The notes beneath the pieces are model-generated. The model saw only the letters and a program-made list of their open reading frames with translations, did not search any database and was not told where the DNA came from. Below are positions 1 through 57,032 of a stretch of DNA of 64,000 bases, piece by piece. Origin of the DNA: a virus (taxonomy: Duplodnaviria > Heunggongvirae > Uroviricota > Caudoviricetes); IMG/VR virus record IMGVR_UViG_3300045988_158233, one strand, 5' to 3'. The number at the start of each line of letters is the position of its first letter. Positions within the stretch are counted from its first letter, which is position 1. Position numbers and translations under genes: made by a program.

Positions 1-1
1 A

Positions 2-2902
2 GCCAGTTCGGCGGCGTCATCGGCATCATCTGCGTCTGCTTCAAAAGATGAGGCGACCAGACAGGCGTCAGCAGCGAAGGGCAGCGCCACGACGGCATCC
101 ACGAAAGCAACAGAGGCGGCAGGCAGTGCGACGGCAGCATCTCAGAGCAAAACTGCTGCTGAATCCGCTGCGACCCGTGCGGAAGCTGCTGCTGATCGTG
201 CTGAAGAGATTGCCGGTGCAGTTGCGATGGAAGACGCAAGCCTTACAACTAAAGGTGTTGTGAAACTTAGCAGTGCTGTCGATAGCACCAGTGAATCGCT
301 GGCCGCAACGCCAAAAGCAGTTAAGGCCGCATATGATAATGCTGAAAAAAGACTACAGAAGGATCAGAATGGTGCTGATATCCCAGACAAGGGCCGCTTC
401 CTGAGTAACATTAATGTTTACAGCAAAGGTGAAGTGGATAAGAAAAAGGGGATGCGAAAATACACTTTCTCTGCTCCTGCAAATGCAGTAAGCGGTAAGT
501 GGTATCCTGTAGTCTTTCGCCGAACTGGTGGTGGCACAGATGAATTAGCCTCACGAGTGGTTATCACCACTTATTCCTCAGCTGGCGGATACGCTATGAA
601 TAATTGTGAGTTTAATGGTTTTGTTATGCCGGGCGGTTGGTCTGATCGCGGTTCATATGCTGTTGGTTTTTTCTCAATATATTCAACCGTTGAACGATCT
701 ATACACTCGATTATCGCAAGCGTGAAAGATGATGATTTGTGTAGTGTATTTTACGTTGAGACAAGAGCATTCCCTATCCAGATTTTTGCTGAGGAAGGAT
801 TAAATGTGATTGTTCCAACGGCTGATTATGCAGTTGGTCAAACCACTTATAAGTGGGGGGCCACTGATCCTTTATCAGAAAGTACGAATGCACAGATAAT
901 TTTGGACTTTAAAAATGGACGAGGTTATTACTGTTCACATCCATTTATTTCAAGTCTTTCAGGAAATGCTGCTACAGCAACGAAATTACAGACGGCAAGA
1001 TCTATCGGTGGAGTTGGTTTCGACGGTTCTGCCAATATTAATCTTCCAGGTGTAAACACTACGGGTAATCAGAACACCACTGGTAATGCCGCAACTGCTA
1101 CAAAACTACAGACGGCAAGAACTATCGGCGGCGTGAGCTTTGATGGTACTGCAAATATTAATTTGCCAGGTGTTAATACGACTGGTAATCAGAATACAAC
1201 AGGTAATGCGGCTACTGCTACGAAGTTGCAGACTGCGCGTACTATTAATGGGGTGTCGTTTGACGGTTCGGCAAATATTTCCTTGTCACCAGCAAATATA
1301 GGTTGCCCAGCATCTCCTACTGGTTGGTTAACTACAGGAAGTAATGGCGGAGCAATAACAACAGCCCAGTTAGTGACGTTATTGCAAAATAATGGAGCCT
1401 TTAACACAAAGGCATGGATTGCTCGATGTGCGTGGGCCTATGCCAATAGCGCAACCATACCAAATAGTGAAACTGGTTGTGGCGTTATTCCATTGGCAGG
1501 AGCTGTTATAGAAGTATTTAATAACGGTAGTAGTTCAAATAATTATACGATCCGCATAACAACGGCCACAACGACAAGTGTTTCCGGTGCTCTCACTAAT
1601 GCGGAGTTTATCTATGTATTTAATGGCACAGATTATTCTCCAGGATGGCGAAGAGTATATAACACGAAAAACAAACCAACAGCCTCTGATGTCGGTGCAT
1701 TACCTCTTACCGGTGGTACATTATCTGGAGGTTTGACATCTTCTGGCGAGATCATTTCAAAATATGCAAATGGTTTCCGCATTGCTTACGGTAGCTTTGG
1801 GTTCTTTATCCGTAATGATGGATCGAACACATATTTCATGCTAACAGCATCAGGAGACACATTAGGTTCATGGAACGGTTTGCGACCTATTACAATTAAT
1901 AATACCAGCGGTGCTGTATCAATTGGTAATGGACTAAATGTGACTGGTGGCGTAAATGGTAGTTTGAACGGTAATGCTTCAACAGCTACGAAGTTGCAAA
2001 CAGCGAGAAACATCAATGGTGTTAAGTTTGATGGCTCAGGCGATATCAACATTAATACATTGGTATCTCGTGGCCGAGTTACGGCGTTAAGCGGTTCTAC
2101 TCAAGGTACTGCTGGCATTCAAATGTACGAGGCGTACAACAATAGCTACCCGACCACGTATGGCAACGTATTGCACATGAAAGGTGCGAGTGCTGCTGGT
2201 GAGGGCGAGTTGCTTATTGGCTGGAGTGGTACGAGCGGTGCACATGCGCCGGTTTTCATTCGCTCCAGAAGAGATACCACTGATGCGGCATGGTCAGCGT
2301 GGGCGCAGGTATATACCGCTAAGGATTCAATCCCTGGTGTGAATACAACCGGTAATCAGAATACTACTGGTAATGCCGCAACAGCCACAAAATTGCAGAC
2401 AGCAAGGAAAATTGCTGGTGTGGCGTTTGATGGCTCTGCCGATATAACTTTGACTGCGGCTAACCTTAATGCTTACACGAAAACAGAGGTAACAAACCTT
2501 CTAAGTTCCTATGTGAAGAGCAGTGCTCTTCCAAGCATGACTGTGCGAACTTCCTCTGTTTCAGGTGGGGATATGGGCATGAGCTTGTCCGCATTCATTA
2601 GCCACCTAAAATCAAATGGGGCGTTTAGCAAAAGTTATTGGATTGGCTTTGGCGATGCTATGGGATTCAATGCTGGCAGTATCAACAATATAACGGGATT
2701 TGGTGCTGTAGAATTAGCAGAATCTATAATCGAAGTTTTTAATCTACCTAACGGTGATTATACAATTCGTTTAACAACGTCACATAAAGCTGACTACGGT
2801 GGAGTTACAAACGCAATCCTCGTTTATCACTACCGTAGTAATAGAAGTCCGTCAGGTCAATGGCTGAAATTTGCAGGTACTGTTGGGGCAACAAGTAACT
2901 GA
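2..2902 (+). CDS. Tail fibre protein, 5'-partial (frame open from the window edge)
   Basis: Track ORF 227..2902 stays open in the same frame back to position 2 with an Ala/Ser/Thr-rich region; at least five copies of a ~30-aa repeat GNAATATKLQTAR-I-GV-FDG-ANINLPGVNTTGNQNTT typical of phage tail-fibre repeats; Gly/Ser/Thr/Asn-rich composition. Confidence 0.8.
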   Translation, partial: ASSAASSASSASASKDEATRQASAAKGSATTASTKATEAAGSATAASQSKTAAESAATRAEAAADRAEEIAGAVAMEDASLTTKGVVKLSSAVDSTSESLAATPKAVKAAYDNAEKRLQKDQNGADIPDKGRFLSNINVYSKGEVDKKKGMRKYTFSAPANAVSGKWYPVVFRRTGGGTDELASRVVITTYSSAGGYAMNNCEFNGFVMPGGWSDRGSYAVGFFSIYSTVERSIHSIIASVKDDDLCSVFYVETRAFPIQIFAEEGLNVIVPTADYAVGQTTYKWGATDPLSESTNAQIILDFKNGRGYYCSHPFISSLSGNAATATKLQTARSIGGVGFDGSANINLPGVNTTGNQNTTGNAATATKLQTARTIGGVSFDGTANINLPGVNTTGNQNTTGNAATATKLQTARTINGVSFDGSANISLSPANIGCPASPTGWLTTGSNGGAITTAQLVTLLQNNGAFNTKAWIARCAWAYANSATIPNSETGCGVIPLAGAVIEVFNNGSSSNNYTIRITTATTTSVSGALTNAEFIYVFNGTDYSPGWRRVYNTKNKPTASDVGALPLTGGTLSGGLTSSGEIISKYANGFRIAYGSFGFFIRNDGSNTYFMLTASGDTLGSWNGLRPITINNTSGAVSIGNGLNVTGGVNGSLNGNASTATKLQTARNINGVKFDGSGDININTLVSRGRVTALSGSTQGTAGIQMYEAYNNSYPTTYGNVLHMKGASAAGEGELLIGWSGTSGAHAPVFIRSRRDTTDAAWSAWAQVYTAKDSIPGVNTTGNQNTTGNAATATKLQTARKIAGVAFDGSADITLTAANLNAYTKTEVTNLLSSYVKSSALPSMTVRTSSVSGGDMGMSLSAFISHLKSNGAFSKSYWIGFGDAMGFNAGSINNITGFGAVELAESIIEVFNLPNGDYTIRLTTSHKADYGGVTNAILVYHYRSNRSPSGQWLKFAGTVGATSN

Positions 2903-29300: not shown

Positions 29301-29824
29301 ACGTGCTCATGACACGGATGGCGGCTGAAATGGGCTTAGGTGATGAACTAATCCGCCCCAGCATTGGTATTAAGCCGAAAATCATGATCATTCTGGACAA
29401 TGCGAACGGCAATGATGCTCGAACCGGTTACTTTATGGAGAACGGATACGACGATTTTAAGGCCAAGCTATTGACGGCTGGAGATTTACGCATGGGCGAT
29501 CTGTATGTCACAGGCGTTTGCAAAAAGGTGAAAGACAAAGAAAAGGACTACACCAAAGACGAGATCGGCCAGTTCACCGACTTTATGCGTGAAGAGATCA
29601 ATCTGGTACGTCCGACCTATGTGCTGACGTGTGGCAGCCGGGCGACGTCGCTCTTCAACAACAAGATCAAACCATCCGACCTGGTTGGACGCAAAGAGTA
29701 TCTGCCGGAGCTAGATGTGACTGTTTTCTACGGATTTAACCCGAATATTTTGTACTTTCGCCCAGAGGAAGGCGAAAAGCTGGAAGCAATTCTTGCAGAG
29801 GTAGCGGAGACTATTAGCAAATGA
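26306..29824 (+). CDS. dnaE: DNA polymerase III alpha-subunit-like (DnaE family) replicative polymerase
   Basis: 1172 aa; PHP-like N-terminus; conserved Pol III alpha core [52 protein letters not shown]; C-terminal ~150 aa of different character. Confidence 0.85.
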   Translation: [1172 protein letters not shown]

Positions 29825-29972
29825 ACAAAGAGAACACCATGAAGGTGGCCAGAGAGAAAAGAGTTTATGGAAGTAAACAAGATTGGCGATGTAAGACAGT
29901 ACAGGCTGAAGTGCCAAACCAGAGTCTCGCTATCCAACATTCTTGGTAAGAAGGTCGCTTAATATAATAAAC

Positions 29973-29997
29973 AGGCCCGTTATATAACGGGCCTTTT
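29973..29997. terminator. Bidirectional terminator between convergent genes
   Basis: aggcccgtta-tata-acgggcct hairpin with T-run. Confidence 0.65.
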
Positions 29998-29999
29998 AG

Positions 30000-30980
30000 T
30001 TAACAAATTCTATTATTAACTAGTATAGTATGGAGTTTATTATTTATAGGGGAATACGGATCGAAATCACTCATCATGACACTATTTGATTCGCACGCCT
30101 GTTCAAAGGCATACATAATTATAGGCATATAGCGCTCATGACATTTTTTAAGTGATTTAACTTCCTCTGATAGATACTCTAGTCGATTGTTACCTCTAAT
30201 AGCCAATTCCACCTCATCATATGAGTACAACAAATCGTTTAAATCACAGAAAAAATTAAAATTTGGTAGTCCATGTTTTAAATCCCCGTCCACAATTGTT
30301 TCTTCAAAGAATTCCCCTAATGCAGTAATGTTTCTCTCAATACCTTCGCATCGTTCAATGATCTTCAGATCTTCACTAGATAGCCATAATCTAAGCCATT
30401 TCTCTCTATCCCTTGGAGATTTCAGATATTGGTCTTCGTTAAATGTTACTGATGTACTTCCTGAGTTATTGTAATCCGCTGTACTTGATAACGATGCGAT
30501 GGTTTGTTTGTCTAAATGCCGCCAGTAAATATCTGGCTCTTCATGCTTATTATCTTCGTTTAGACAAATTAAAACGATCACTATAGGGAAATCGCATTCC
30601 CCCCAATACTTTAAATTTTTATAGGGGATCTGTACTCCTAGACTACTACTCATTGTGCGTGAGGTGGTTTTTACCTGAACGCCAATAAACATACCGGTAG
30701 AAAGTTCATTTTCATAGATTTCAACCTGTGCATCCAACCCCATATCAATATCCAGCAGTCGACAAGGCCATTTGAAATAACGGGAAATCCAATAAGCAAA
30801 TAAGTACTCACCAGCGTGTCCTTCTGCACTGGTCTTCGGATATGTCATGCCTTCAGTTTTATTTTTTTCTGCTGCTGACCTCGCAGACTTAACTTTTGGG
30901 GGTGGGGACAGTTCTTTAGTCGGCACAGGCTTTTCTGCTTTTGCTTGATTGTTAGCTTTATTCATTGATTTTATTCTCAC
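30000..30980 (-). CDS. Hypothetical protein with N-terminal PD-(D/E)xK-like nuclease motif (AT-rich moron)
   Basis: 326-aa minus-strand ORF; GEYLFAYWISRYFKWPCRLLDIDMGLDAQVEIYEN...GMFIGVQVKTT has acidic residues followed by a strand ending QVK, as in restriction-endonuclease-fold nucleases; Lys-rich N-terminal tail; AT-rich by eye. Confidence 0.55.
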   Translation of the reverse strand: MRIKSMNKANNQAKAEKPVPTKELSPPPKVKSARSAAEKNKTEGMTYPKTSAEGHAGEYLFAYWISRYFKWPCRLLDIDMGLDAQVEIYENELSTGMFIGVQVKTTSRTMSSSLGVQIPYKNLKYWGECDFPIVIVLICLNEDNKHEEPDIYWRHLDKQTIASLSSTADYNNSGSTSVTFNEDQYLKSPRDREKWLRLWLSSEDLKIIERCEGIERNITALGEFFEETIVDGDLKHGLPNFNFFCDLNDLLYSYDEVELAIRGNNRLEYLSEEVKSLKKCHERYMPIIMYAFEQACESNSVMMSDFDPYSPINNKLHTILVNNRIC

Positions 30981-31093
30981 TTTGTTCTGTTCGCTTTATG
31001 CCCTGATTCTGCCCTTTAGCTCCCATACTGTCTACCGCTAATCATAGCAGTAAAGCTCTTTTTATTTGATATAATCAAATACACAAAATTAAG

Positions 31094-31540
31094 TTGGAAC
31101 CTATCAAAATGAGTGCAGATATCTACGAAAAAATAATGTCCGATCTTGAATTCGACCGCGACAATCTGGAGGAAGTCTGGCGTCAGCAACCGCGCTTGTT
31201 GATGGAGTATGGCTCAAAACTCGCTCATGCAGAAAGAAGTGTCGCAGAGGCAAAACTTAACCTTGAAGCTGTTGAAGCAAAGCTATACGACACAGAGCGT
31301 AAGAACTTGAGTATGAACGGCATTAAGTTCAACGAGTCTGTACTGGACGCTAAGGTTAAAACAAACCCACAGTATCTATCTAAACGTCAGAAGTTGGATG
31401 ACGCACGGCACATAGCAGACATATACAAACATGCTGTCGCCGCCTTTTCGCATCGCCGAGACATGATCGTTCAGGCGTCAAAGATGGCCATCGTTGAATT
31501 AGAGCGATTAGGCTCTGAACGCTTTATTACTCCCCGTTAA
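31094..31540 (+). CDS. Hypothetical protein
   Basis: 148-aa ORF, helical/charged. Confidence 0.4.
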   Translation: MEPIKMSADIYEKIMSDLEFDRDNLEEVWRQQPRLLMEYGSKLAHAERSVAEAKLNLEAVEAKLYDTERKNLSMNGIKFNESVLDAKVKTNPQYLSKRQKLDDARHIADIYKHAVAAFSHRRDMIVQASKMAIVELERLGSERFITPR

Positions 31541-33959: not shown

Positions 33960-35033
33960 ATGGCAAAAGGAAAATCCGCACTGGCACTTGCTCTGAAAAA
34001 GAAAATCGGTAGCAACGACGAAATTCAGAAAGTAACTCATTGGATTGATACAGGCTTTCCACCGTTAAACAAAGCTATTTCTGGTCGTTACGATGGCGGC
34101 TTCCCATGTGGTCGTATCGTCGAAGTATTCGGTCCTCCAAGTGCAGGGAAAACGTTCCTTGCAACAGCAGCGATGATCTCCGCTCAAAAACAAGATGGTC
34201 TGGCGGTATTCCTCGATCATGAAAACAGTTTTGACGTTGGCCTGGCTGTAGCCAATGGCCTGAACGCAGATGAGGATGACGGTCAGTGGGTATACAAGCA
34301 GCCAGATACCTTCGAAGACTCTGTAGAGTTGATCGGCACAATACTTAAATTGGTTCGTGATGAAGAGCTTATCCCCGAATCAGCACCTATCTGTATCGTG
34401 GCTGACTCTCTTGCGTCTATGGTTCCGAACTCCAAAGCTGAGAAGTTCGAAAAGATGGCTGAAGGCACTGCCAAAGACAAAGATCAGCTAAACATGAACG
34501 ACAATACGGCACTGGCTCGTGCGACGAGTGCGAACTTCCCTACTCTGGCTTTGTGGGCACGCAAATACAACGCCTGCATCATCTTCTTGAATCAGGTTCG
34601 CACAAAAATCGGTGTAATGTTTGGCGACCCTACTACGTCGCCAGGTGGAGATTCACCGAAGTTCTACGCTTCTGTACGTATCCGTCTTGGTGCATCGGTG
34701 ATGAAGGATGGTAAAGAGAAGATCGGCCAGGACGTAGGCGCAGAATGCATCAAAAACAAAGTTGCACCACCGTATGGCAAATGCACCTGGAAATTCTACT
34801 TCGATCCTACTCGTGGCCTCGACGTTATCGAATCGCTCGTCGAGTACATGCTGGAAGAAGGATACCTGCCAAAGAACGCCAGCGGGCGAGTTGAAATTGG
34901 TGACAAGAAATACACCAAATCGCAGATCGTCGAGATGTATCGGGAGAAGCCACTGGCTGAAATCATTGCGGCTTTGCAGGCAATCGACGACCGAAGAGCA
35001 AAAGACAACCCCACCGAGTCAGTAGAAGAGTAA
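33960..35033 (+). CDS. RecA-family recombinase (UvsX/Sak4-like)
   Basis: 357 aa; GRIVEVFGPPSAGKTFLATA matches the RecA Walker A context. Confidence 0.7.
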   Translation: MAKGKSALALALKKKIGSNDEIQKVTHWIDTGFPPLNKAISGRYDGGFPCGRIVEVFGPPSAGKTFLATAAMISAQKQDGLAVFLDHENSFDVGLAVANGLNADEDDGQWVYKQPDTFEDSVELIGTILKLVRDEELIPESAPICIVADSLASMVPNSKAEKFEKMAEGTAKDKDQLNMNDNTALARATSANFPTLALWARKYNACIIFLNQVRTKIGVMFGDPTTSPGGDSPKFYASVRIRLGASVMKDGKEKIGQDVGAECIKNKVAPPYGKCTWKFYFDPTRGLDVIESLVEYMLEEGYLPKNASGRVEIGDKKYTKSQIVEMYREKPLAEIIAALQAIDDRRAKDNPTESVEE

Positions 35034-45282: not shown

Positions 45283-47642
45283 ATGATAAGCATCGTAAAA
45301 CGTAACGGCCAAACAGAGCCGTTATCCGAAGAAAAATACAACCGCGTCGTAATGTATGGCGTAGAAGGCATTCGTGGTGTAAGCGCATCCGCTGTAGCAA
45401 TGGGAGCTGCGGCCAGCATTTTTGATGGGATTACCACCAGCCAGTTGCATGAGGCTTTGGTTAAATCTGCCGCTGATTTGATCTCACCAGAAGCACCAAA
45501 TTACTCACAGGTGGCTGCCCGCCTGAACATTTTTAAAATCCGCAAAGATGCCTTCGGTCGTTACGACTATCCGAACTTCTACCAACACATTGTCAAGAAC
45601 GTTAACAAGGGCGTTTATGACAAGGATTTGCTGACACATTATTCGTTTGAAGAGATCGAAGAACTCGGCAATTACATTAAGCCGAAACGTGACGATCTTT
45701 TTGGCTATGCAGCTACGGTGCAGTTGCAAAGCAAATACCTCGTTCAAAACCGTGTTACTGGTGAGATTCATGAGGGGCCGCAACATATCTATATGCTGGT
45801 AGGCATGTGTCTGTTCCAGAATTGGGAAGACGACTGCGCTGGCAAAACACGTATGGAGATGGTCAAAGGTTTCTATGACGTTACAAGTACGTTCAAACTG
45901 TCTCTGCCCACACCAATCATGGCCGGCGTCCGTACTCCAACCCGTCAGTTCTCCAGTTGTGTGCTGATTGAGTCTGGCGATAGTCTGAAAGGGATTAGTG
46001 CAGCTTCAGCCGCAATTATCGACTACGTTTCACGTCGTGCTGGAATTGGTATTGGTTTTGGCCGTATCCGTGCGCTGGGCAGCGAGATCCGCAATGGTGA
46101 AGCCACCCATACTGGAGTTATTCCATTCCTGAAGCATTTCCAGACGGCTGTTAAATCTTGTTCGCAAGGTGGTGTTCGTGGTGGCGCAGCAACAGCGTTT
46201 TACCCGATCTGGCATCTTGAAGTTGAAAGTCTGCTGGTGGTGAAAAATAACCGTGGTATTGATGAAAACCGCGTTCGCCATCTTGATTACGGCGTCATGA
46301 GTAACCGTCTAATGTACCGTCGACTCGTCAGAAGCGAGAACATCACTCTGTTCAGCCCGCATGATGTGCCTGATATGTACGAAGCCTTCTTCACAGACCA
46401 GGAGCTGTTTGAAAAGCTGTACCATAAATACGAAGCCGATGATTCAATTCGCAAGAAGTCAGTACCTGCCATTGAGCTGTTCTCATCTCTGATGCAGGAA
46501 CGAGCGTCCACGGGCCGAATTTATATTGCGAACGTCGATCATATTAATGAGCATGGCGCTTTCATTCCTGCTCTTGCACCTGTTCGCCAGTCAAACCTGT
46601 GTATGGAGATCACCCTACCCACCCGTCCACTGGCATTTACCGACGACCCGAACGGTGAGATCGCGCTATGCACTTTATCCGCTTTTAACCTCGGAGCCAT
46701 CCGTTCACTGGAGTCTCTTAAAGAGGTGGCGTTCTATGCCGTTGCTGCACTGGATTCGTTACTGGATTATCAAGACTATCCGATGGAGGCAGGCCGAGTT
46801 GCCCGCCACTCAAAGTTGCTTATCCGATGGAGGCAGCCGAAGTGCCTGCCAAAGCTCGTCGTAGCTTGGGAATTGGTGTAACCAACTTTGCTTATTACCT
46901 GGCAAAGAATGGCGTTCGTTATTCTGATACCGCTGGCAATAAACTGGTGCATGAAACGTTCGAAGCTATCCAGTATTACCTTCTTGATGCCAGCTGCCGA
47001 CTTGCTGAAGCAAAAGGTGAGTGTGACTGGTTTGAGCAGACCAAATACGCAATTGGTCAGTTGCCGATCGACCATTACCGTTCTTCATTAGACGAAAGTG
47101 GCGAAACCAACTTTGAGTTAAAGATGCCGTGGGAAGAACTGCGTGAACGTATTGCAAAATACGGCCTTCGCAACTCCACTCTGACGGCACAAATGCCATG
47201 CGAGACTTCCAGCCAGATCACTAATTCCACCAACGGCATCGAACCGCCTCGTGGCCCGGTGTCAGTGAAATCTTCTAAGGACGGCATCGTCAAGATGGTC
47301 GTGCCTGAGTTTGAAAAACTGAAGGAACAGTATGAATACCTGTGGGATATGCCGGACAACCGCGGCTATCTGACAAAGGTGGCGATCATCCAGAAGTTCT
47401 TTGACCAGGCTATTTCGGCCAATACCAACTATGACCCTTCTCGCTTTGAAGGCGATAAAGTCCCAATGATGACGCTACTGTCAGATTTGCTTCTCGCCTA
47501 CAAGATGGGAGTTAAAACGCTTTACTACCACAACACCAGAGATGGTGCAGGAAAGCGTGATGACGACGAACCGCAGAATCCACTGGCGCAAGCTGTAGCC
47601 GTCGAGCCAGAAGATGAGTGCGACGGAGCCTGCAAAATCTGA
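45283..47642 (+). pseudogene. nrdA: Ribonucleotide reductase class Ia large subunit (nrdA), interrupted by a 44-bp imperfect tandem duplication causing a frameshift
   Basis: Track ORFs 45283..46881 and 46827..47642 together match NrdA end to end (ATP-cone N-terminus, PTRQFSSCVLIE, C-terminal CDGACKI). The frame break falls exactly at a duplicated 44-bp unit (copy A 46777..46820, copy B 46821..46864); reading only copy B gives the expected DYQDYPMEAAEVPAKARRSLGIGV. Confidence 0.8.
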
Positions 47643-47704
47643 CATATGGTGGGGGATATCCCCACCTTCTCTTTGATTTGTAAGCCTTGTTTAAACACAT
47701 AAGA

Positions 47705-47717
47705 TAACAACTTGTTT
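47705..47717. promoter_or_regulatory. AACAA-C-TTGTTT palindromic site (family member, left arm imperfect)
   Basis: Upstream of nrdB. Confidence 0.4.
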
Positions 47718-47748
47718 AAACGCACCAAAAAAGAAAAAGGAAAAACAC

Positions 47749-48891
47749 ATGTCATATTCAACGTTCCGTTTGGGTGCTAATGATGCAACCAAAGAGCCTA
47801 TGTTCCTCGGACAATCTGTCAACGTGGCACGTTACGATCAGCAAAAATACCGTGATTTTGAAAAGTTGATTGAACGTCAATTGTCTTTCTTCTGGCGGCC
47901 GGAAGAAGTTGATATTTCGAGCGATCGTATCGACTTCAACACGAAGCTGCGGGACCACGAACGTCACATTTTTCTGAGCAATCTCCGTTATCAAACGTTA
48001 CTCGATTCAGTTCAGGGACGTAGTCCAAATGCAACGCTGCTGCCGCTTATCTCTATTCCTGAACTGGAAACGTGGGTTGAAACGTGGTCTTTCTCTGAGA
48101 CTATCCATAGCCGCAGCTACACCCACATTATTCGTGGCATGGTGGACGATCCGAGCATTGTTTTTGACGGTATTGTTACGGATGAAGAAATCATCAACCG
48201 AGCGATCAGTATCTCTGCTGAATATGACAGGCTTTATGGGATGACCTGCGAGCGCCAGTCGTTAGGTGAGAAGGAGTTTGAACGTCTGTACGTAAATGAA
48301 TATGGCTGGGAGCCATACCCTTTGCACCGTCAGCTTTTCCGCACGTTGGTGTCCATTAATGCGCTTGAGGCGATCCGTTTCTATGTAAGTTTTGCATGTA
48401 CGTTTGCCTTTGGCGAACGGAAGTTGCTTGAGGGTAACACCAAAATTATGCGCTTTATTGCCCGTGATGAAGCTCTGCATTGCGAAGGAACTGAACGCAT
48501 GATCCGCTTCATGCGTACCGGTCGCGAAGGTTTATTGTGGAAAGAGATTGCTGCTGATGAAGAAAACGTCATTTACGACACCATGAAATCAGTCGCCGAA
48601 CAAGAAATGAACTGGGCAGACTATCTCTTCAAAGACGGTTCGATGATTGGTTTAAACGCGGATATTCTCAAAACCTATGTAAAATACCGCACCAATCTGG
48701 CTATGAATCGTCTTGGCCTGAAGGCTTTATTTCCAGAGGTTACCACCGATCCGCTGGTCTGGATGAACAAGTGGTTGTTAACCGACACACTGCAAATTGC
48801 ACCACAAGAGGCAGAGCAAAGCACATATCTGGTAGGTCAGATCGATTCTACCGTGGATAAGGCTTCTCTAAGCCAGTTTGCTGACCTGTAA
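47749..48891 (+). CDS. nrdB: Ribonucleotide reductase class Ia small subunit
   Basis: 380 aa, alignable by eye to enterobacterial NrdB along its length ([18 protein letters not shown]..., [35 protein letters not shown]). Confidence 0.9.
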
Positions 48892-48968
48892 ACCGATACA
48901 AAGCATTATGTGGCCTGGCAACGCTGGGCCACAATGGATCACAAGAATTAAGAAGGAACAAAACTAGC

Positions 48969-49838
48969 ATGAACTTTACCAAACTGACTGACCACCTGAA
49001 ACTTGCCACCGATCGACTCATTGGATTTAAGCCAGAACCATATGAGTTGCATGAAGGTCATGGTGTAGCTACTGAAAGTATTTACAAGATGGTCGATCAG
49101 TTTCATGAACTCTTCCAGCATCCGAGACGCGTTATGCCGACACCAGAGCTGCTTCGTCTCCGTGCAAGCCTGATTCATGAAGAAGCTGTAGTGGAAGGTA
49201 TTCCAGCCGCAATGAATGGGGATATTGAGCAACTGCTGGATGCAATGGCCGACTTTTTATACGTTGGTGTTGGTACGATGGTCGCCATCAAAGGTGGTAT
49301 TTCTACCGGCATGACCTATTACACGCAGGAACAGAGCATTGATCGCTTTATGCAGACAATTTTTGTGCCCGGTAACACTGTTTTCGATGATATGGCAATG
49401 CCATTTCAGGAAGCTCGTGAGGCGTCATGTATGCTCGAAGAGCTGGCAGATAAACTTGAGAACAAGACTGTTAAGGATTCTGAGCTGATTCAGGAACTGC
49501 GCCGTGTCATGAACAAAATCTATGTGGCGTGCATGATGACCTATCGACTGGCTGATTTCCTCGGTATCAATGTAGTCGAGCTGGTTGGCGAAATTCATCG
49601 GTCTAACATGACAAAATTATGGCCTGCTGATGTCGAGGAACGTCGCCAGGCTGTGGCCAACTGCAAATACGACTCTTCAGACCTGGGATTTCGCCATGCT
49701 GATGGTACCGATAAGATGATCGGTTTTCGAATTTCCGATGGAAAGATTCTGAAGTCTCCAACCTATAGTGATGTCGATTTATCCTCCTTTGTTGAGCAAG
49801 CTAAAGCCTCAGCAATGTACGGAATGATCAAAAAATAA
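48969..49838 (+). CDS. Hypothetical protein within the nucleotide-metabolism block
   Basis: 289-aa ORF; followed by hairpin terminator 49907..49931. Confidence 0.45.
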   Translation: MNFTKLTDHLKLATDRLIGFKPEPYELHEGHGVATESIYKMVDQFHELFQHPRRVMPTPELLRLRASLIHEEAVVEGIPAAMNGDIEQLLDAMADFLYVGVGTMVAIKGGISTGMTYYTQEQSIDRFMQTIFVPGNTVFDDMAMPFQEAREASCMLEELADKLENKTVKDSELIQELRRVMNKIYVACMMTYRLADFLGINVVELVGEIHRSNMTKLWPADVEERRQAVANCKYDSSDLGFRHADGTDKMIGFRISDGKILKSPTYSDVDLSSFVEQAKASAMYGMIKK

Positions 49839-49906
49839 TTGTAGGTAGTTATCTATCTATGTATATTGTGTTAGCGCGTTAAATTCCTGAAACAACTATT
49901 CGTTTT

Positions 49907-49931
49907 GGTGGCCTATGGCCACCATTTTTTT
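49907..49931 (+). terminator. Rho-independent terminator
   Basis: ggtggcc-tat-ggccacc hairpin followed by a T-run. Confidence 0.6.
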
Positions 49932-49981
49932 ATCTATCTGGCCTTGTTCCCTCAATAAATGTAAACTCACGTAATGAATAA

Positions 49982-51112
49982 GTGGTTACTTATCTTTGTG
50001 AGGTTTTTGTGTCACTCCTTTTGAATCGTGAGCATACGAACGGTCAGGTAACAAACGCATCGTATGCAAAAGTTATTGAGACGGTGCTTAAAAGCGGCGT
50101 GCAGGCTGATGATCGCACAGGCACTGGTACTTTAAGCACCTGCTACGTTCCCTCTTACTACATGCTTACTGGTGGGACTGTGCCGCTTATTTCTGGAAAG
50201 GCGGTAAATCTTAAGCCACTGCTTGTCGAACTTGAGTGGTATCTGAAAGGCACGGGCAACATCCAATTTCTCAAGGATAACGGCGTTAAGATTTGGGATG
50301 CATGGGCCGATGAGAATGGCGATTTGGGGCCAGTTTACGGTAAGCAGTGGCGTCGATGGGAAGATACCCGCATCGTGAGCCATAGTGAATATCTGAGCAA
50401 GATCGCTACTTTCCGTGAACGCGGGTACAAAGTCGAGGGATACCTAGGTATCAGTGAAGATCGCGTAGTGCTGTCCCGTGAAATCGATCAGCTACAGCGT
50501 ATTGTCGATACACTGCGCACGAACCCTACCGATCGTCGCATCATGCTTAACGCATGGAACGTAGGCGAGCTTGAGGATATGAAACTGCCACCTTGCCACT
50601 TTGTCTTCTCTTTGTGGAGTCGTGAGCTTGATTTTGAAACCCGTTTAACGATGGCAACTGACATTGGTCTTCAACACAGTCGCCTCGGTTACGAGTCTAT
50701 CTACACCAAGATGCTATACGATCTGGAGATGGACGGCAGTGTTACTGAAGCTGAACTGGATGAACTTGGAATCCCCAAACGCATCCTCAACTCCTGCCTC
50801 GTACAGCGTAGCGTAGACACTTTTGTTGGTATGCCATTCAATATTGCTGGCTATGGCATTCTCACTCATTTTCTCGCGAAGATTACGGGTCACATGGCCG
50901 GTGCATTTGTGCATTTTGGCTTTGACGTGCATTTGTACAATAACCACATGGAAAGTGTGCGTGAGCTAATGCAACGACAGGCTCCAGAGCATTCAGATCC
51001 GGTCGTTATATTCCCTAATGAATGGTCTGAGCTGGATGATTTCAAATGGGACGAGATTCTTATTCTTGGCTATGCCCCTCTACCGTGGATCAAGGTTCCA
51101 GTGGCGGTGTGA
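49982..51112 (+). CDS. thyA: Thymidylate synthase (ThyA family) with an internal ~50-aa insertion
   Basis: DRTGTGTLS, WADENGDLGPVYGKQWR, active-site LPPCH, and C-terminal HLYNNH; GTG/alternative start, exact start uncertain. Confidence 0.85.
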   Translation: MVTYLCEVFVSLLLNREHTNGQVTNASYAKVIETVLKSGVQADDRTGTGTLSTCYVPSYYMLTGGTVPLISGKAVNLKPLLVELEWYLKGTGNIQFLKDNGVKIWDAWADENGDLGPVYGKQWRRWEDTRIVSHSEYLSKIATFRERGYKVEGYLGISEDRVVLSREIDQLQRIVDTLRTNPTDRRIMLNAWNVGELEDMKLPPCHFVFSLWSRELDFETRLTMATDIGLQHSRLGYESIYTKMLYDLEMDGSVTEAELDELGIPKRILNSCLVQRSVDTFVGMPFNIAGYGILTHFLAKITGHMAGAFVHFGFDVHLYNNHMESVRELMQRQAPEHSDPVVIFPNEWSELDDFKWDEILILGYAPLPWIKVPVAV

Positions 51113-51114
51113 TA

Positions 51115-51527
51115 TGGCAAGAGGTATGTATGTCTTATGCGAAATTGAAGGTGTGCTGGCAAATACCAGCCATCGTAAATCTGTATCTGACTCGGATGCA
51201 GGCCAATTCATTGCCGGTGATGAACTCATTTTCCCCACCAGCCGTATGTTGCGTGGTTTTGCTCGCTCAGGGGCTGAAGTGGTGCTTATCAGTAGCCGCT
51301 CTGAAACTCTTGAAGCGCCCACTAAACGATGGCTGAAAGATTTTGGTGTTGATTACGACTGGCTTCATCTCGTACCGAATAGCACTAGTTATGAGAAGCA
51401 TATTAAGCGCACATTAGCGGAGCATAAAGGCGATCTGCTTATCGCTGCGCTGGTGCACGATCCTCGACTCCGTGCCGCTTTAGCTGACTCTCATCATAGA
51501 CCGGTCATCTATGAGGTGAGCAAATGA
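51115..51527 (+). CDS. Hypothetical protein
   Basis: Internal ATG of track ORF 51018..51527, chosen because it begins just after the thyA stop; no motif recognised. Confidence 0.3.
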
Positions 51528-52000
51528 AGATGATAGCTGCTGTTGGCCGTAACTATGAGATCGGCATAGCGAACGAACTGCCCTGGCGTTGTTCTACCGA
51601 TCTGAAGCTATTTAAGAGACTCACCAAAAACGCCACTGTCGTTATGGGGCGTAAAACGATGGAAAGTCTCAAACGCCCTCTTCCAGAGCGTCATAACCTC
51701 GTTTTGACGCGCTCTCATGGCTTTGTACCAAATGGATTCTACCCTGCTGGTGTGGATGATGTGTTGCGATTACCAGAGCCTGTGTGGGTGATTGGCGGGA
51801 AACAAATTTACTCGCTATTCATGCCGCATGTTGAAGAGATTTGGCTCTCCCACATCGACGTTGATGTGCCAAACGCCGATGCATTCTTCCCGGCAAGCAT
51901 GATGCGTAATTTAGGCTTTGTGCCTGTTGAAACAGCTTATACCCAACGAGCCAGCGAGGAAGAGCCTGGCTTTTCGCAGATCGTATACAGAAGGTCGTAA
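51524..52000 (+). CDS. folA: Dihydrofolate reductase
   Basis: 158 aa; N-terminal MIAAVGRNYEIGIANELPW and VVMGRKTMESLKRPLPERHNLVLTRS match the DHFR fold signature. Confidence 0.8.
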   Translation: MKMIAAVGRNYEIGIANELPWRCSTDLKLFKRLTKNATVVMGRKTMESLKRPLPERHNLVLTRSHGFVPNGFYPAGVDDVLRLPEPVWVIGGKQIYSLFMPHVEEIWLSHIDVDVPNADAFFPASMMRNLGFVPVETAYTQRASEEEPGFSQIVYRRS

Positions 52001-55856: not shown

Positions 55857-56438
55857 TAGATAAGTACAAACTATTCATAAAGTGAATTGTAAGTGCTAAG
55901 ATCTGATAGTTTCCAGTCGTAGACTGGAGGCTCGATCTGATGGGTGGGGGTAAGCGTCACTGGCGTCAGGTTTAAAAAAGCTCACTACCAGCGTAGAACC
56001 GGTGCCGTTTAGGTGTCGGGGAAGGGGGAACCAAAGTGAGCAGAGACAAGGGTCACTTTATGATTGTCGAGTCTGGGGTGTTTCGAGAGGTTGAATCCAG
56101 TACTCCCCTTCATAAAGTGTGGGAAGATCTCGGTTCTGGGGTGCTGTCATCCATAACTTCCCAAGTCTAAGCTGGCAGTAGACTTAGACCATAGCTTTTC
56201 AGGTTATGAAACGACCAGGTTGGTGAGGAATTTTATACTCACCTCCCTGGGAGAGTATTACCTGAAAAGACAACCTCTCACTTCGTTCGAGGTGAACTTC
56301 ACTCACTTCGTTCGTTCAGTTCAGGTTTATAAAAACCTGTTCTGGGAAGTAATTTGTTTATTTTAATAATTATTAACACGCACGCGTGTGCGCACGCGCG
56401 AGGAAAAAATCGGCGCGGCGCTTGATTCAGGAGTTTAT

Positions 56439-57032
56439 ATGACGACGAAGACACCAGCCCGATCGCAAGCAAAAACTCGCAAAAAAGACAAAAACAAAAA
56501 TTCTCCCCGCACCAATCCCACAACGCCTGTCGTAGAGTTCAACCCCCAGCTTAAAACCGTGAAAATCTTTAGTGATGGCTCTTGCCTCAAAAATCCGGGT
56601 GGCCCGGGCGGTTACGGTATCGTTCTCCAGTATCGTGGTGAGGAACGCGAGTTCTCAGATGGTTTTCATAGCACCACCAATAACCGCATGGAGATGATGG
56701 GGGCACTTATCGGGCTGGAGCGTTTGAAATATCCATGCAACGTTATTTTGTACTCTGATAGCCAGTATCTGAAAAACGGCATGACACAGTGGATGAAATG
56801 GTGGAAACGTAATGGATGGATGACTTCTGATAAAAAACCGGTAAAGAATGTTGATCTGTGGAAACGTCTGGATGAGGCCGCAAGTCGACATAATGTTCGC
56901 TGGAAGTGGGTTAAAGGTCACGCCGGGCATCGTGAAAATGAAATATGTGATCGACTCGCGAAGATCGCAGCTTTTTCCGCAGCCGATACGCCTCACAAGA
57001 AAGACATTGGTTTTATTTACAACAAGTGGTAA
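56439..57032 (+). CDS. Ribonuclease H (RNase HI family)
   Basis: [65 protein letters not shown]; start placed at ATG with RBS caggag (track ORF begins 56388). Confidence 0.8.

Follow-up and report, generated by a model that had tools for sequence, protein, structure and literature searches.

The split nrdA gene of Aeromonas phage Aeh1, a class Ia ribonucleotide reductase (RNR) gene, was reportedly described by Friedrich in 2007. The nrdA-a / mobE / nrdA-b arrangement of this phage (Crona 2010, PMC3045599) shares with the locus reported here a class Ia nrdA laid out as two ORFs beside an intact nrdB. The Aeh1 arrangement is unlike the present one in that a homing endonuclease gene lies between the pieces, the split falls between the equivalents of C439 and C462, and both pieces carry dedicated tails, in an enzyme whose activity has been demonstrated (PMC3045599). 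The tails that NrdA-a and NrdA-b carry are essential for assembly (PMC3045599). Gene 60 of phage T4 offers a comparison of another kind. There, too, matching codons flank a brief interruption of comparable length (50 nt) that is not decoded, but the gap studied here has no stop codon after the take-off codon, no hairpin and no conservation.

The sequencing process itself provides a further described system. GGC motifs or inverted repeats have been found to trigger lagging-strand dephasing in Illumina sequencing, which hinders de novo assembly (Nakamura et al. 2011, PMC3141275), and the miscalls produced by dephasing equal the preceding base in 49-64% of cases (PMC3141275). The present locus resembles this sequence-specific error in its direction-specific miscalls just past GGC, in a bias toward the preceding base and in an assembly break at the spot. 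It differs from the published system in that the putative error is read here from assembled sequence alone. The intact nrdA genes of Escherichia phage Cyrano, of the pLF82-type plasmids and of the E. coli DG341-1 plasmid, finally, represent the same gene among the same neighbours at 99.3-99.97% DNA identity. What separates the intact nrdA of these SSU5-like phage-plasmids from the locus described below is 44 extra bases, present in the latter only.

The nrdA locus

The whole stretch of DNA that was analyzed, hereafter the window, comprises 64,000 nt of IMG/VR record IMGVR_UViG_3300045988_158233. The window belongs to the SSU5-like phage-plasmids and comes from E. coli. Across nrdA, Escherichia phage Cyrano and CMS-2020a share 99.3% identity with it, and the genes around nrdA occur in the order SbcC-like ATPase, RuvC-like protein, nrdA, nrdB, MazG-like protein and thymidylate synthase. 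The complete plasmid unnamed2 of E. coli DG341-1 (NZ_JBVDMJ010000004.1; 108,475 bp) can be aligned with the whole 64-kb window at 99.97% identity, with 18 SNPs and a sole indel, which is the 44-nt insert. The features of the locus are the following.

45283..46776, + strand: nrdA codons 1-498, with the ATP-cone, the all-alpha domain and the first half of the barrel (Pfam; 2r1r alignment, E=0; collinear with the nrdA of relatives)
46777..46792, + strand: first 16-nt core, TATCCGATGGAGGCAG, codons Y-P-M-E-A; the last clean left-hand bases, including a GGC
46793..46820, + strand: garbled 28 nt, GCCGAGTTGCCCGCCACTCAAAGTTGCT, in which the true downstream sequence, CCGAAGTGCCTGCCA..., is copied with a lag; unique in the window
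46821..46836, + strand: second 16-nt core; start of the clean right-hand sequence, at the same boundary as in contig L006 (see below)
46821..47642, + strand: nrdA codons 499-771 and the stop codon, with the barrel's second half, the counterparts of Y730/Y731 and the C-terminal CDGAC cysteines (Pfam; 2r1r; restored ORF)
47749..48891, + strand: nrdB, intact, 380 aa (Pfam PF00268; annotated as nrdB in relatives)

As written, the window contains no single unbroken NrdA frame, since the 44-nt insert shifts it. ORF 1 (45283..46881, 532 aa) ends in ...DYQDYPMEAGRVARHSKLLIRWRQPKCLPKLVVAWELV before its stop codon, the final 34 residues being out of frame, and ORF 2 (46827..47642, 271 aa) starts at a native Met and reads MEAAEVPAKARRSLGIGV... 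up to a terminal CDGACKI. The products of both ORFs are already present in protein collections. In Pfam searches ORF 1 displays PF03477, PF00317 and positions 1-275 of the 523-position PF02867 profile, and ORF 2 displays positions 274-523 of the same profile, contiguous with the part found in ORF 1. Upon deletion of 46777-46820 a single ORF of 2316 nt and 771 aa is obtained, whose product differs from the NrdA of Cyrano by one amino acid and shows no second lesion. The restored protein aligns with E. coli R1 (2r1r) over residues 4-770 (E=0), and the motifs SSCVLIE, SNLCMEI, ALCTLSAFN, LYYHNT and CDGAC all find their counterparts in this alignment. The residues corresponding to C225, N437, C439, E441 and C462 of the E. 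coli enzyme are encoded in the 45283..46776 segment. With its domains and catalytic residues present, the restored gene encodes the large subunit of a class Ia ribonucleotide reductase. An earlier note on this DNA had interpreted the two ORFs as the parts of one class Ia NrdA, a view borne out by the contiguous PF02867 halves and by the 2r1r alignment. Its further claims, that omission of 44 nt brings the frame back and that the adjacent nrdB is intact, agree with the 771-aa ORF and with the 380-aa PF00268 protein described above. What that note observed in the letters themselves was upheld throughout.

The 44 extra bases

The sequence across the junction reads, in order, ...TATCAAGAC TATCCGATGGAGGCAG GCCGAGTTGCCCGCCACTCAAAGTTGCT TATCCGATGGAGGCAG CCGAAGTGCC..., the 16-nt core being repeated at an offset of 44 nt with 28 nt between its two copies. 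In a repeat search the two copies came out as a 23-nt pair of 87% identity at a spacing of 44. Tandem Repeats Finder made no call of the core pair, including with its minimum score lowered to 30. The remainder of copy A (46793-46820) bears a weak likeness to the 28 nt that follow copy B. When the spacer is compared to the post-copy-B sequence with a 1-nt offset, 15 of 27 positions match (shuffles 7.1 +/- 2.3, P about 0.001). These matches are unevenly distributed, 12 falling in the first 15 positions and 3 in the last 12, which is the random level.

When the nrdA genes of Cyrano, PhiR41_1 and SSU5 are aligned with that of the window, the latter shows 44 nt cleanly inserted. The earlier note had named it a 44-bp imperfect tandem duplication. 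As a description this stands insofar as the core does occur twice, 44 nt apart, but as a statement of origin it is misleading, the filler having the appearance of dephased read tails. The two copies of a genuine tandem duplication are identical at birth and diverge at the pace of their flanks, a pattern that is absent here, where 16/16 identity in the core gives way to the 15/27 mentioned above. A duplication that diverged in place was considered and rejected as impossible, with 13 of 28 positions changed as compared to 18 SNPs in the 64-kb flanks relative to the sister plasmid. The note had also posed gene inactivation and assembly or sequencing error as alternatives. This was rightly put, and the evidence presented below favours error.

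The comparison with the orthologous nrdA of related elements was carried out, and no relative carries the insert, which is missing from all of the about 390 related records examined. The nrdA genes of Cyrano, PhiR41_1 and SSU5 are unbroken at 2316 nt, and four close phage records measure 2516-2517 nt across the region that occupies 2561 nt in the window. A 361-nt probe was matched in two pieces by all of 200 E. coli RefSeq and 172 PLSDB plasmids, none of them at an identity of at least 99%. Among the matches listed, 60 for each plasmid collection, the span is 317 nt instead of 361. Three metagenome contigs that display the same local SNP allele, one of which is 99.8-99.9% identical to the window, are devoid of the insert. 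In ten more contigs, retrieved through the neighbouring SbcC-like protein, nrdA is undivided, its product measuring 771 aa in nine of them and being called at 748 aa in the remaining one. An exact search of the viral, genome and metagenome collections for the 26-nt core of the spacer returned no match, and hence neither a donor sequence nor a second carrier.

A second assembly of the same strain

The exact look-up of the 271-aa product led to JGI metagenome contig Ga0169822_100181 (JGI sample 3300014921; 61,144 nt), designated L006. Along 3.8 kb (window 46818-50642) this contig shows 100.000% identity with the window, where other relatives display 98-99%, and it is consequently attributed to the same strain. 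L006 terminates at the junction, 38 nt upstream of the ATG at 46827. Its terminal 32 nt, CTGCACGTGTTCCGTTACGGTATTACCAAGCT, have no similarity to copy A of the window. They were compared without gaps to the true upstream sequence, CTGCACTGGATTCGTTACTGGATTATCAAGAC, and match it at 23 of 32 positions (shuffles 8.1 +/- 2.5; none of 20,000 as good). The tip and the true sequence are equal in length and differ by substitutions only. It is precisely at the TATCCG boundary that the two assemblies of one strain conflict, each of them carrying there a damaged version of the neighbouring wild-type sequence. Should L006 and the source of the window be independent samples, such a common break point would call for a systematic cause. 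A cluster table points to a different JGI/ENA contig, 69,517 nt long and bearing the products of both ORFs, as the source of the window. The sum 46,820 + 61,144 comes near the genome size and had suggested that two contigs were simply concatenated, an idea set aside because the source contig seems to measure 69.5 kb. Exact-protein look-ups with the 532-aa ORF, the SbcC-like protein and the tail fibre, aimed at this source contig and at the left-hand contig of sample 3300014921, yielded other isolates only, and nrdA was undivided in all of these that cover it.

Both garbled tips end in GCT beside TATCCG, where the true sequence is GAC. A shared GCT is what a lag process on the minus strand predicts, A, then G, then C being called after ...GGATA. 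The possibility that the L006 tip is the end of a mobile element was ruled out by an exact search for its 32 nt, which had no match in the window, the viral contigs or the genome contigs.

The far end of the L006 contig was computed to lie about 0.6 kb ahead of the start of the window. Two of the 18 differences from the DG341-1 plasmid are located at positions 1 and 13, within window 1-13, in a GGC-rich part of the tail-fibre gene. On account of these two observations, the start of the window may also lie at or near a contig end.

Two Logan contigs, ERR14060887_15079 (L007, 1-1446) and SRR35744841_68931 (L008, 1-1413), start at window positions 46825 and 46827. They are independent, derive from short reads and begin 4 and 6 nt inside the 16-nt core. 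Illumina assemblies could accordingly be prone to break at this site time and again, and the coincidence may equally reflect ascertainment bias. Both contigs were left out as evidence because an exact look-up of the 271-aa product finds only contigs that start at the ATG.

Lag signature of the garbled stretches

Each garbled stretch was read outward from the core, and every wrong base was compared to the previous and to the next true base. In the L006 tip, read leftwards, 7 of the 9 mismatches (78%) equal the preceding true base and one equals the next. Calls that are either in phase or lagging by one explain 30 of its 32 bases, as opposed to 14.8 +/- 2.8 in shuffles. In the window spacer, read rightwards, the preceding true base accounts for 11 of 20 mismatches (55%) and the next one for 2. 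In-phase or lag-by-one calls explain 19 of its 28 bases (shuffles 13.1 +/- 2.5), a modest result at P = 0.016. GGC is found upstream in both read directions, once inside the core on the plus strand and three times within 30 nt on the minus strand. Judged by this signature, the garbled stretches would be instances of the known Illumina sequence-specific dephasing error. Long-read noise was the idea initially entertained. It was dropped in view of the substitution-only, equal-length, lag-by-one character of the L006 tip, to which sequencing by synthesis is the better fit.

Origin of the insert

The 44 extra bases are very probably a sequencing and assembly artefact, in which error-laden contig tips would have been joined untrimmed. 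The real molecule most likely carries an intact 771-aa nrdA, as part of an ordinary nrdAB operon in an E. coli phage-plasmid of a common kind. The process may be summarized as follows. The source would be a metagenome which, we infer, was sequenced at low coverage on the Illumina platform, and whose reads at this site would lose phase after GGC on both strands. Rightward reads would be clean through ...GGAGGCAG and lagged beyond it, and leftward reads would be clean through TATCCG... and lagged in the same manner thereafter. The clean bases held in common would amount to 16, too few for a k-mer assembler, and two dead ends bearing garbled read tails would result. One assembly, Ga0169822_100181, would simply have halted at its dead end. 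In the assembly of the window, the untrimmed left tip would have been connected to the right-hand sequence, a step that we infer and that would have doubled the core, left 28 garbled bases between the copies and created an apparent frameshift.

Several elements of this account are directly observed, namely the unique insert, the twin contig with a different garbled tip, the lag by one in both stretches and the otherwise perfect gene. The lag signal of the spacer, modest at P about 0.016 and giving way to essentially random sequence in the last 12 nt, counts against an artefact. So does the remainder of the window, which is very clean and indicates that the assembler was not sloppy in general. 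Thousands of other Illumina assemblies traverse the site untroubled. The motif alone is therefore insufficient, and the account further requires that coverage was low or the run poor.

The alternative that the insertion is a real mutation was weighed against this background. A recent private insertion of 44 bp, composed of a 16-bp microhomology duplication and 28 bp of filler, would shift the frame and inactivate the plasmid nrdA while the host nrdAB covered the supply of deoxynucleotides. An accessory plasmid nrdA is dispensable in the plasmid state when the host has its own RNR. The sequence does stand in a deposited contig with both ORF products on record, its 16-nt direct repeat is of the microhomology type found at replication-slippage and template-switch junctions, and gene loss or disruption elsewhere is seen in some relatives. 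This mutation is nevertheless unlikely, considering that none of the about 390 relatives carries the insert, the 99.97% identical one included, that the gene shows no second lesion, and that the twin contig left of TATCCG differs from the window and lies closer to the wild type. The filler, moreover, is neither random nor foreign and corresponds to the adjacent sequence copied with a lag of one base, which to our knowledge is the product of no known mutational process. A recombination junction with a diverged nrdA of another replicon, through a cointegrate or a patch, would turn the tail of copy A and the L006 tip into foreign alleles. The left tip does resemble downstream sequence and the L006 tip upstream sequence, which is how the two junctions would be ordered if one crossover had taken place inside the 16-nt core. 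The changes, however, affect mainly codon positions 1 and 2 and abolish the invariant LLDYQDYP and KARRSLGIG, the L006 tip being translated as ARVPLRYYQAYPM and the window tip being out of frame, whereas real homologues such as that of SSU5 differ at synonymous sites. Neither garbled stretch has an exact match in any collection searched, and recombination of this kind is regarded as very improbable. An IS, a MITE or an intron with a 16-bp target duplication was also considered and rejected: the tips are not mutual inverted repeats, each shows significant similarity to the nrdA sequence next to it, 28 nt are too short for an intron, and Rfam gave no match.

Other readings accept the insert and preserve the function of the gene. 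In a genes-in-pieces RNR of the Aeh1 type, the 532-aa and 271-aa products would assemble with each other, the 34-aa out-of-frame tail serving as an interaction peptide. The Aeh1 NrdA-a/NrdA-b pair sets a precedent, and here ORF 2 possesses a native Met and the whole C-terminal half, both halves being otherwise intact. Such an arrangement remains hard to believe: 28 nt lie between the pieces in place of an endonuclease gene or any other element, the ATG at 46827 is preceded by AAAGTTGCTTATCCG and is devoid of a Shine-Dalgarno sequence, the split falls after residue 498 (about 497 in E. coli), past the C462 equivalent, and the arrangement occurs in no relative. A real insert and a freshly split nrdA whose halves, each otherwise perfect, still assembled into an active reductase would be a highly improbable combination. 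If true, it would constitute a second, endonuclease-free class Ia RNR in pieces, with a position of the barrel split different from that of Aeh1. A programmed bypass would recover full-length NrdA by another route, the ribosome leaving from a take-off codon in the first core copy and landing on the same codon in the second one across the 44-nt gap. The 16-nt repeat would supply the matched codons, and GGAGG occurs just 5' of the potential landing codon. Against this, a stop directly after the take-off codon is missing (reading in frame, one is reached 29 codons on, at 46879), the predicted fold is no more stable than those of shuffles (z = -0.68), Rfam returned no family match, and the gap is conserved in no relative examined. 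The chance of such a bypass is accordingly considered minute.

An artefact, the reading favoured here, bears on the use of the record. Taken at face value, the latter would lead to the annotation of an nrdA pseudogene or of two partial RNR proteins, and it could be cited as an example of gene decay or of a split RNR in phage-plasmids. A simple test for the artefact is to ask, reading outward from a short clean core, whether the erroneous bases repeat the true base before them. This preceding-base test is applicable to other imperfect micro-duplications in metagenome contigs.

Other variation in the phage-plasmid

A number of further differences among the related elements were recorded. For the recA-like gene of NZ_CP027358.1 (L004, 10695-13034) the annotation gives a CDS of 2340 nt named 'LAGLIDADG family homing endonuclease'. 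This CDS contains about 1.26 kb extra as compared to the window (33960-35033) and to the DG341-1 plasmid, which both have a plain 1074-nt recombinase RecA, and the alignment pieces of NZ_CP027358.1 and the window break at about 34150. The difference looks like the presence/absence polymorphism of an intein in the phage-plasmid RecA. Window positions 29816-31118 form a 1.3-kb segment with a minus-strand gene of the DUF4365 domain (30000-30965 in DG341-1 coordinates, L031). The segment is shared with the DG341-1 plasmid and replaced by about 143 nt in NZ_CP027358.1, and thus constitutes a variable island of small size, located between dnaE and the gene after it.

The 22-kb stretch of CP059946.1 (L005, taken whole) is annotated without nrdA, the RuvC-like gene or rnhA, and displays many indels of 1-2 nt relative to the window. 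This suggests that the missing genes reflect assembly errors of the homopolymer type rather than gene loss. A dihydrofolate reductase gene is located beside thymidylate synthase at about 51300-51800 of the window (L032, 6378-6854), and its RefSeq name in the DG341-1 plasmid is 'trimethoprim-resistant dihydrofolate reductase DfrA51'. The rnhA gene (window 56388-57032) is flagged 'frameshifted' by RefSeq in DG341-1. In the window a poly-A run at 56403-56409, the length of which varies among relatives, lies upstream of a well-placed ATG (56440) with AGGAG ahead of it. Given this position of the run, the RNase HI ORF is probably intact, and the flag would reflect the expectation of a longer N-terminus.
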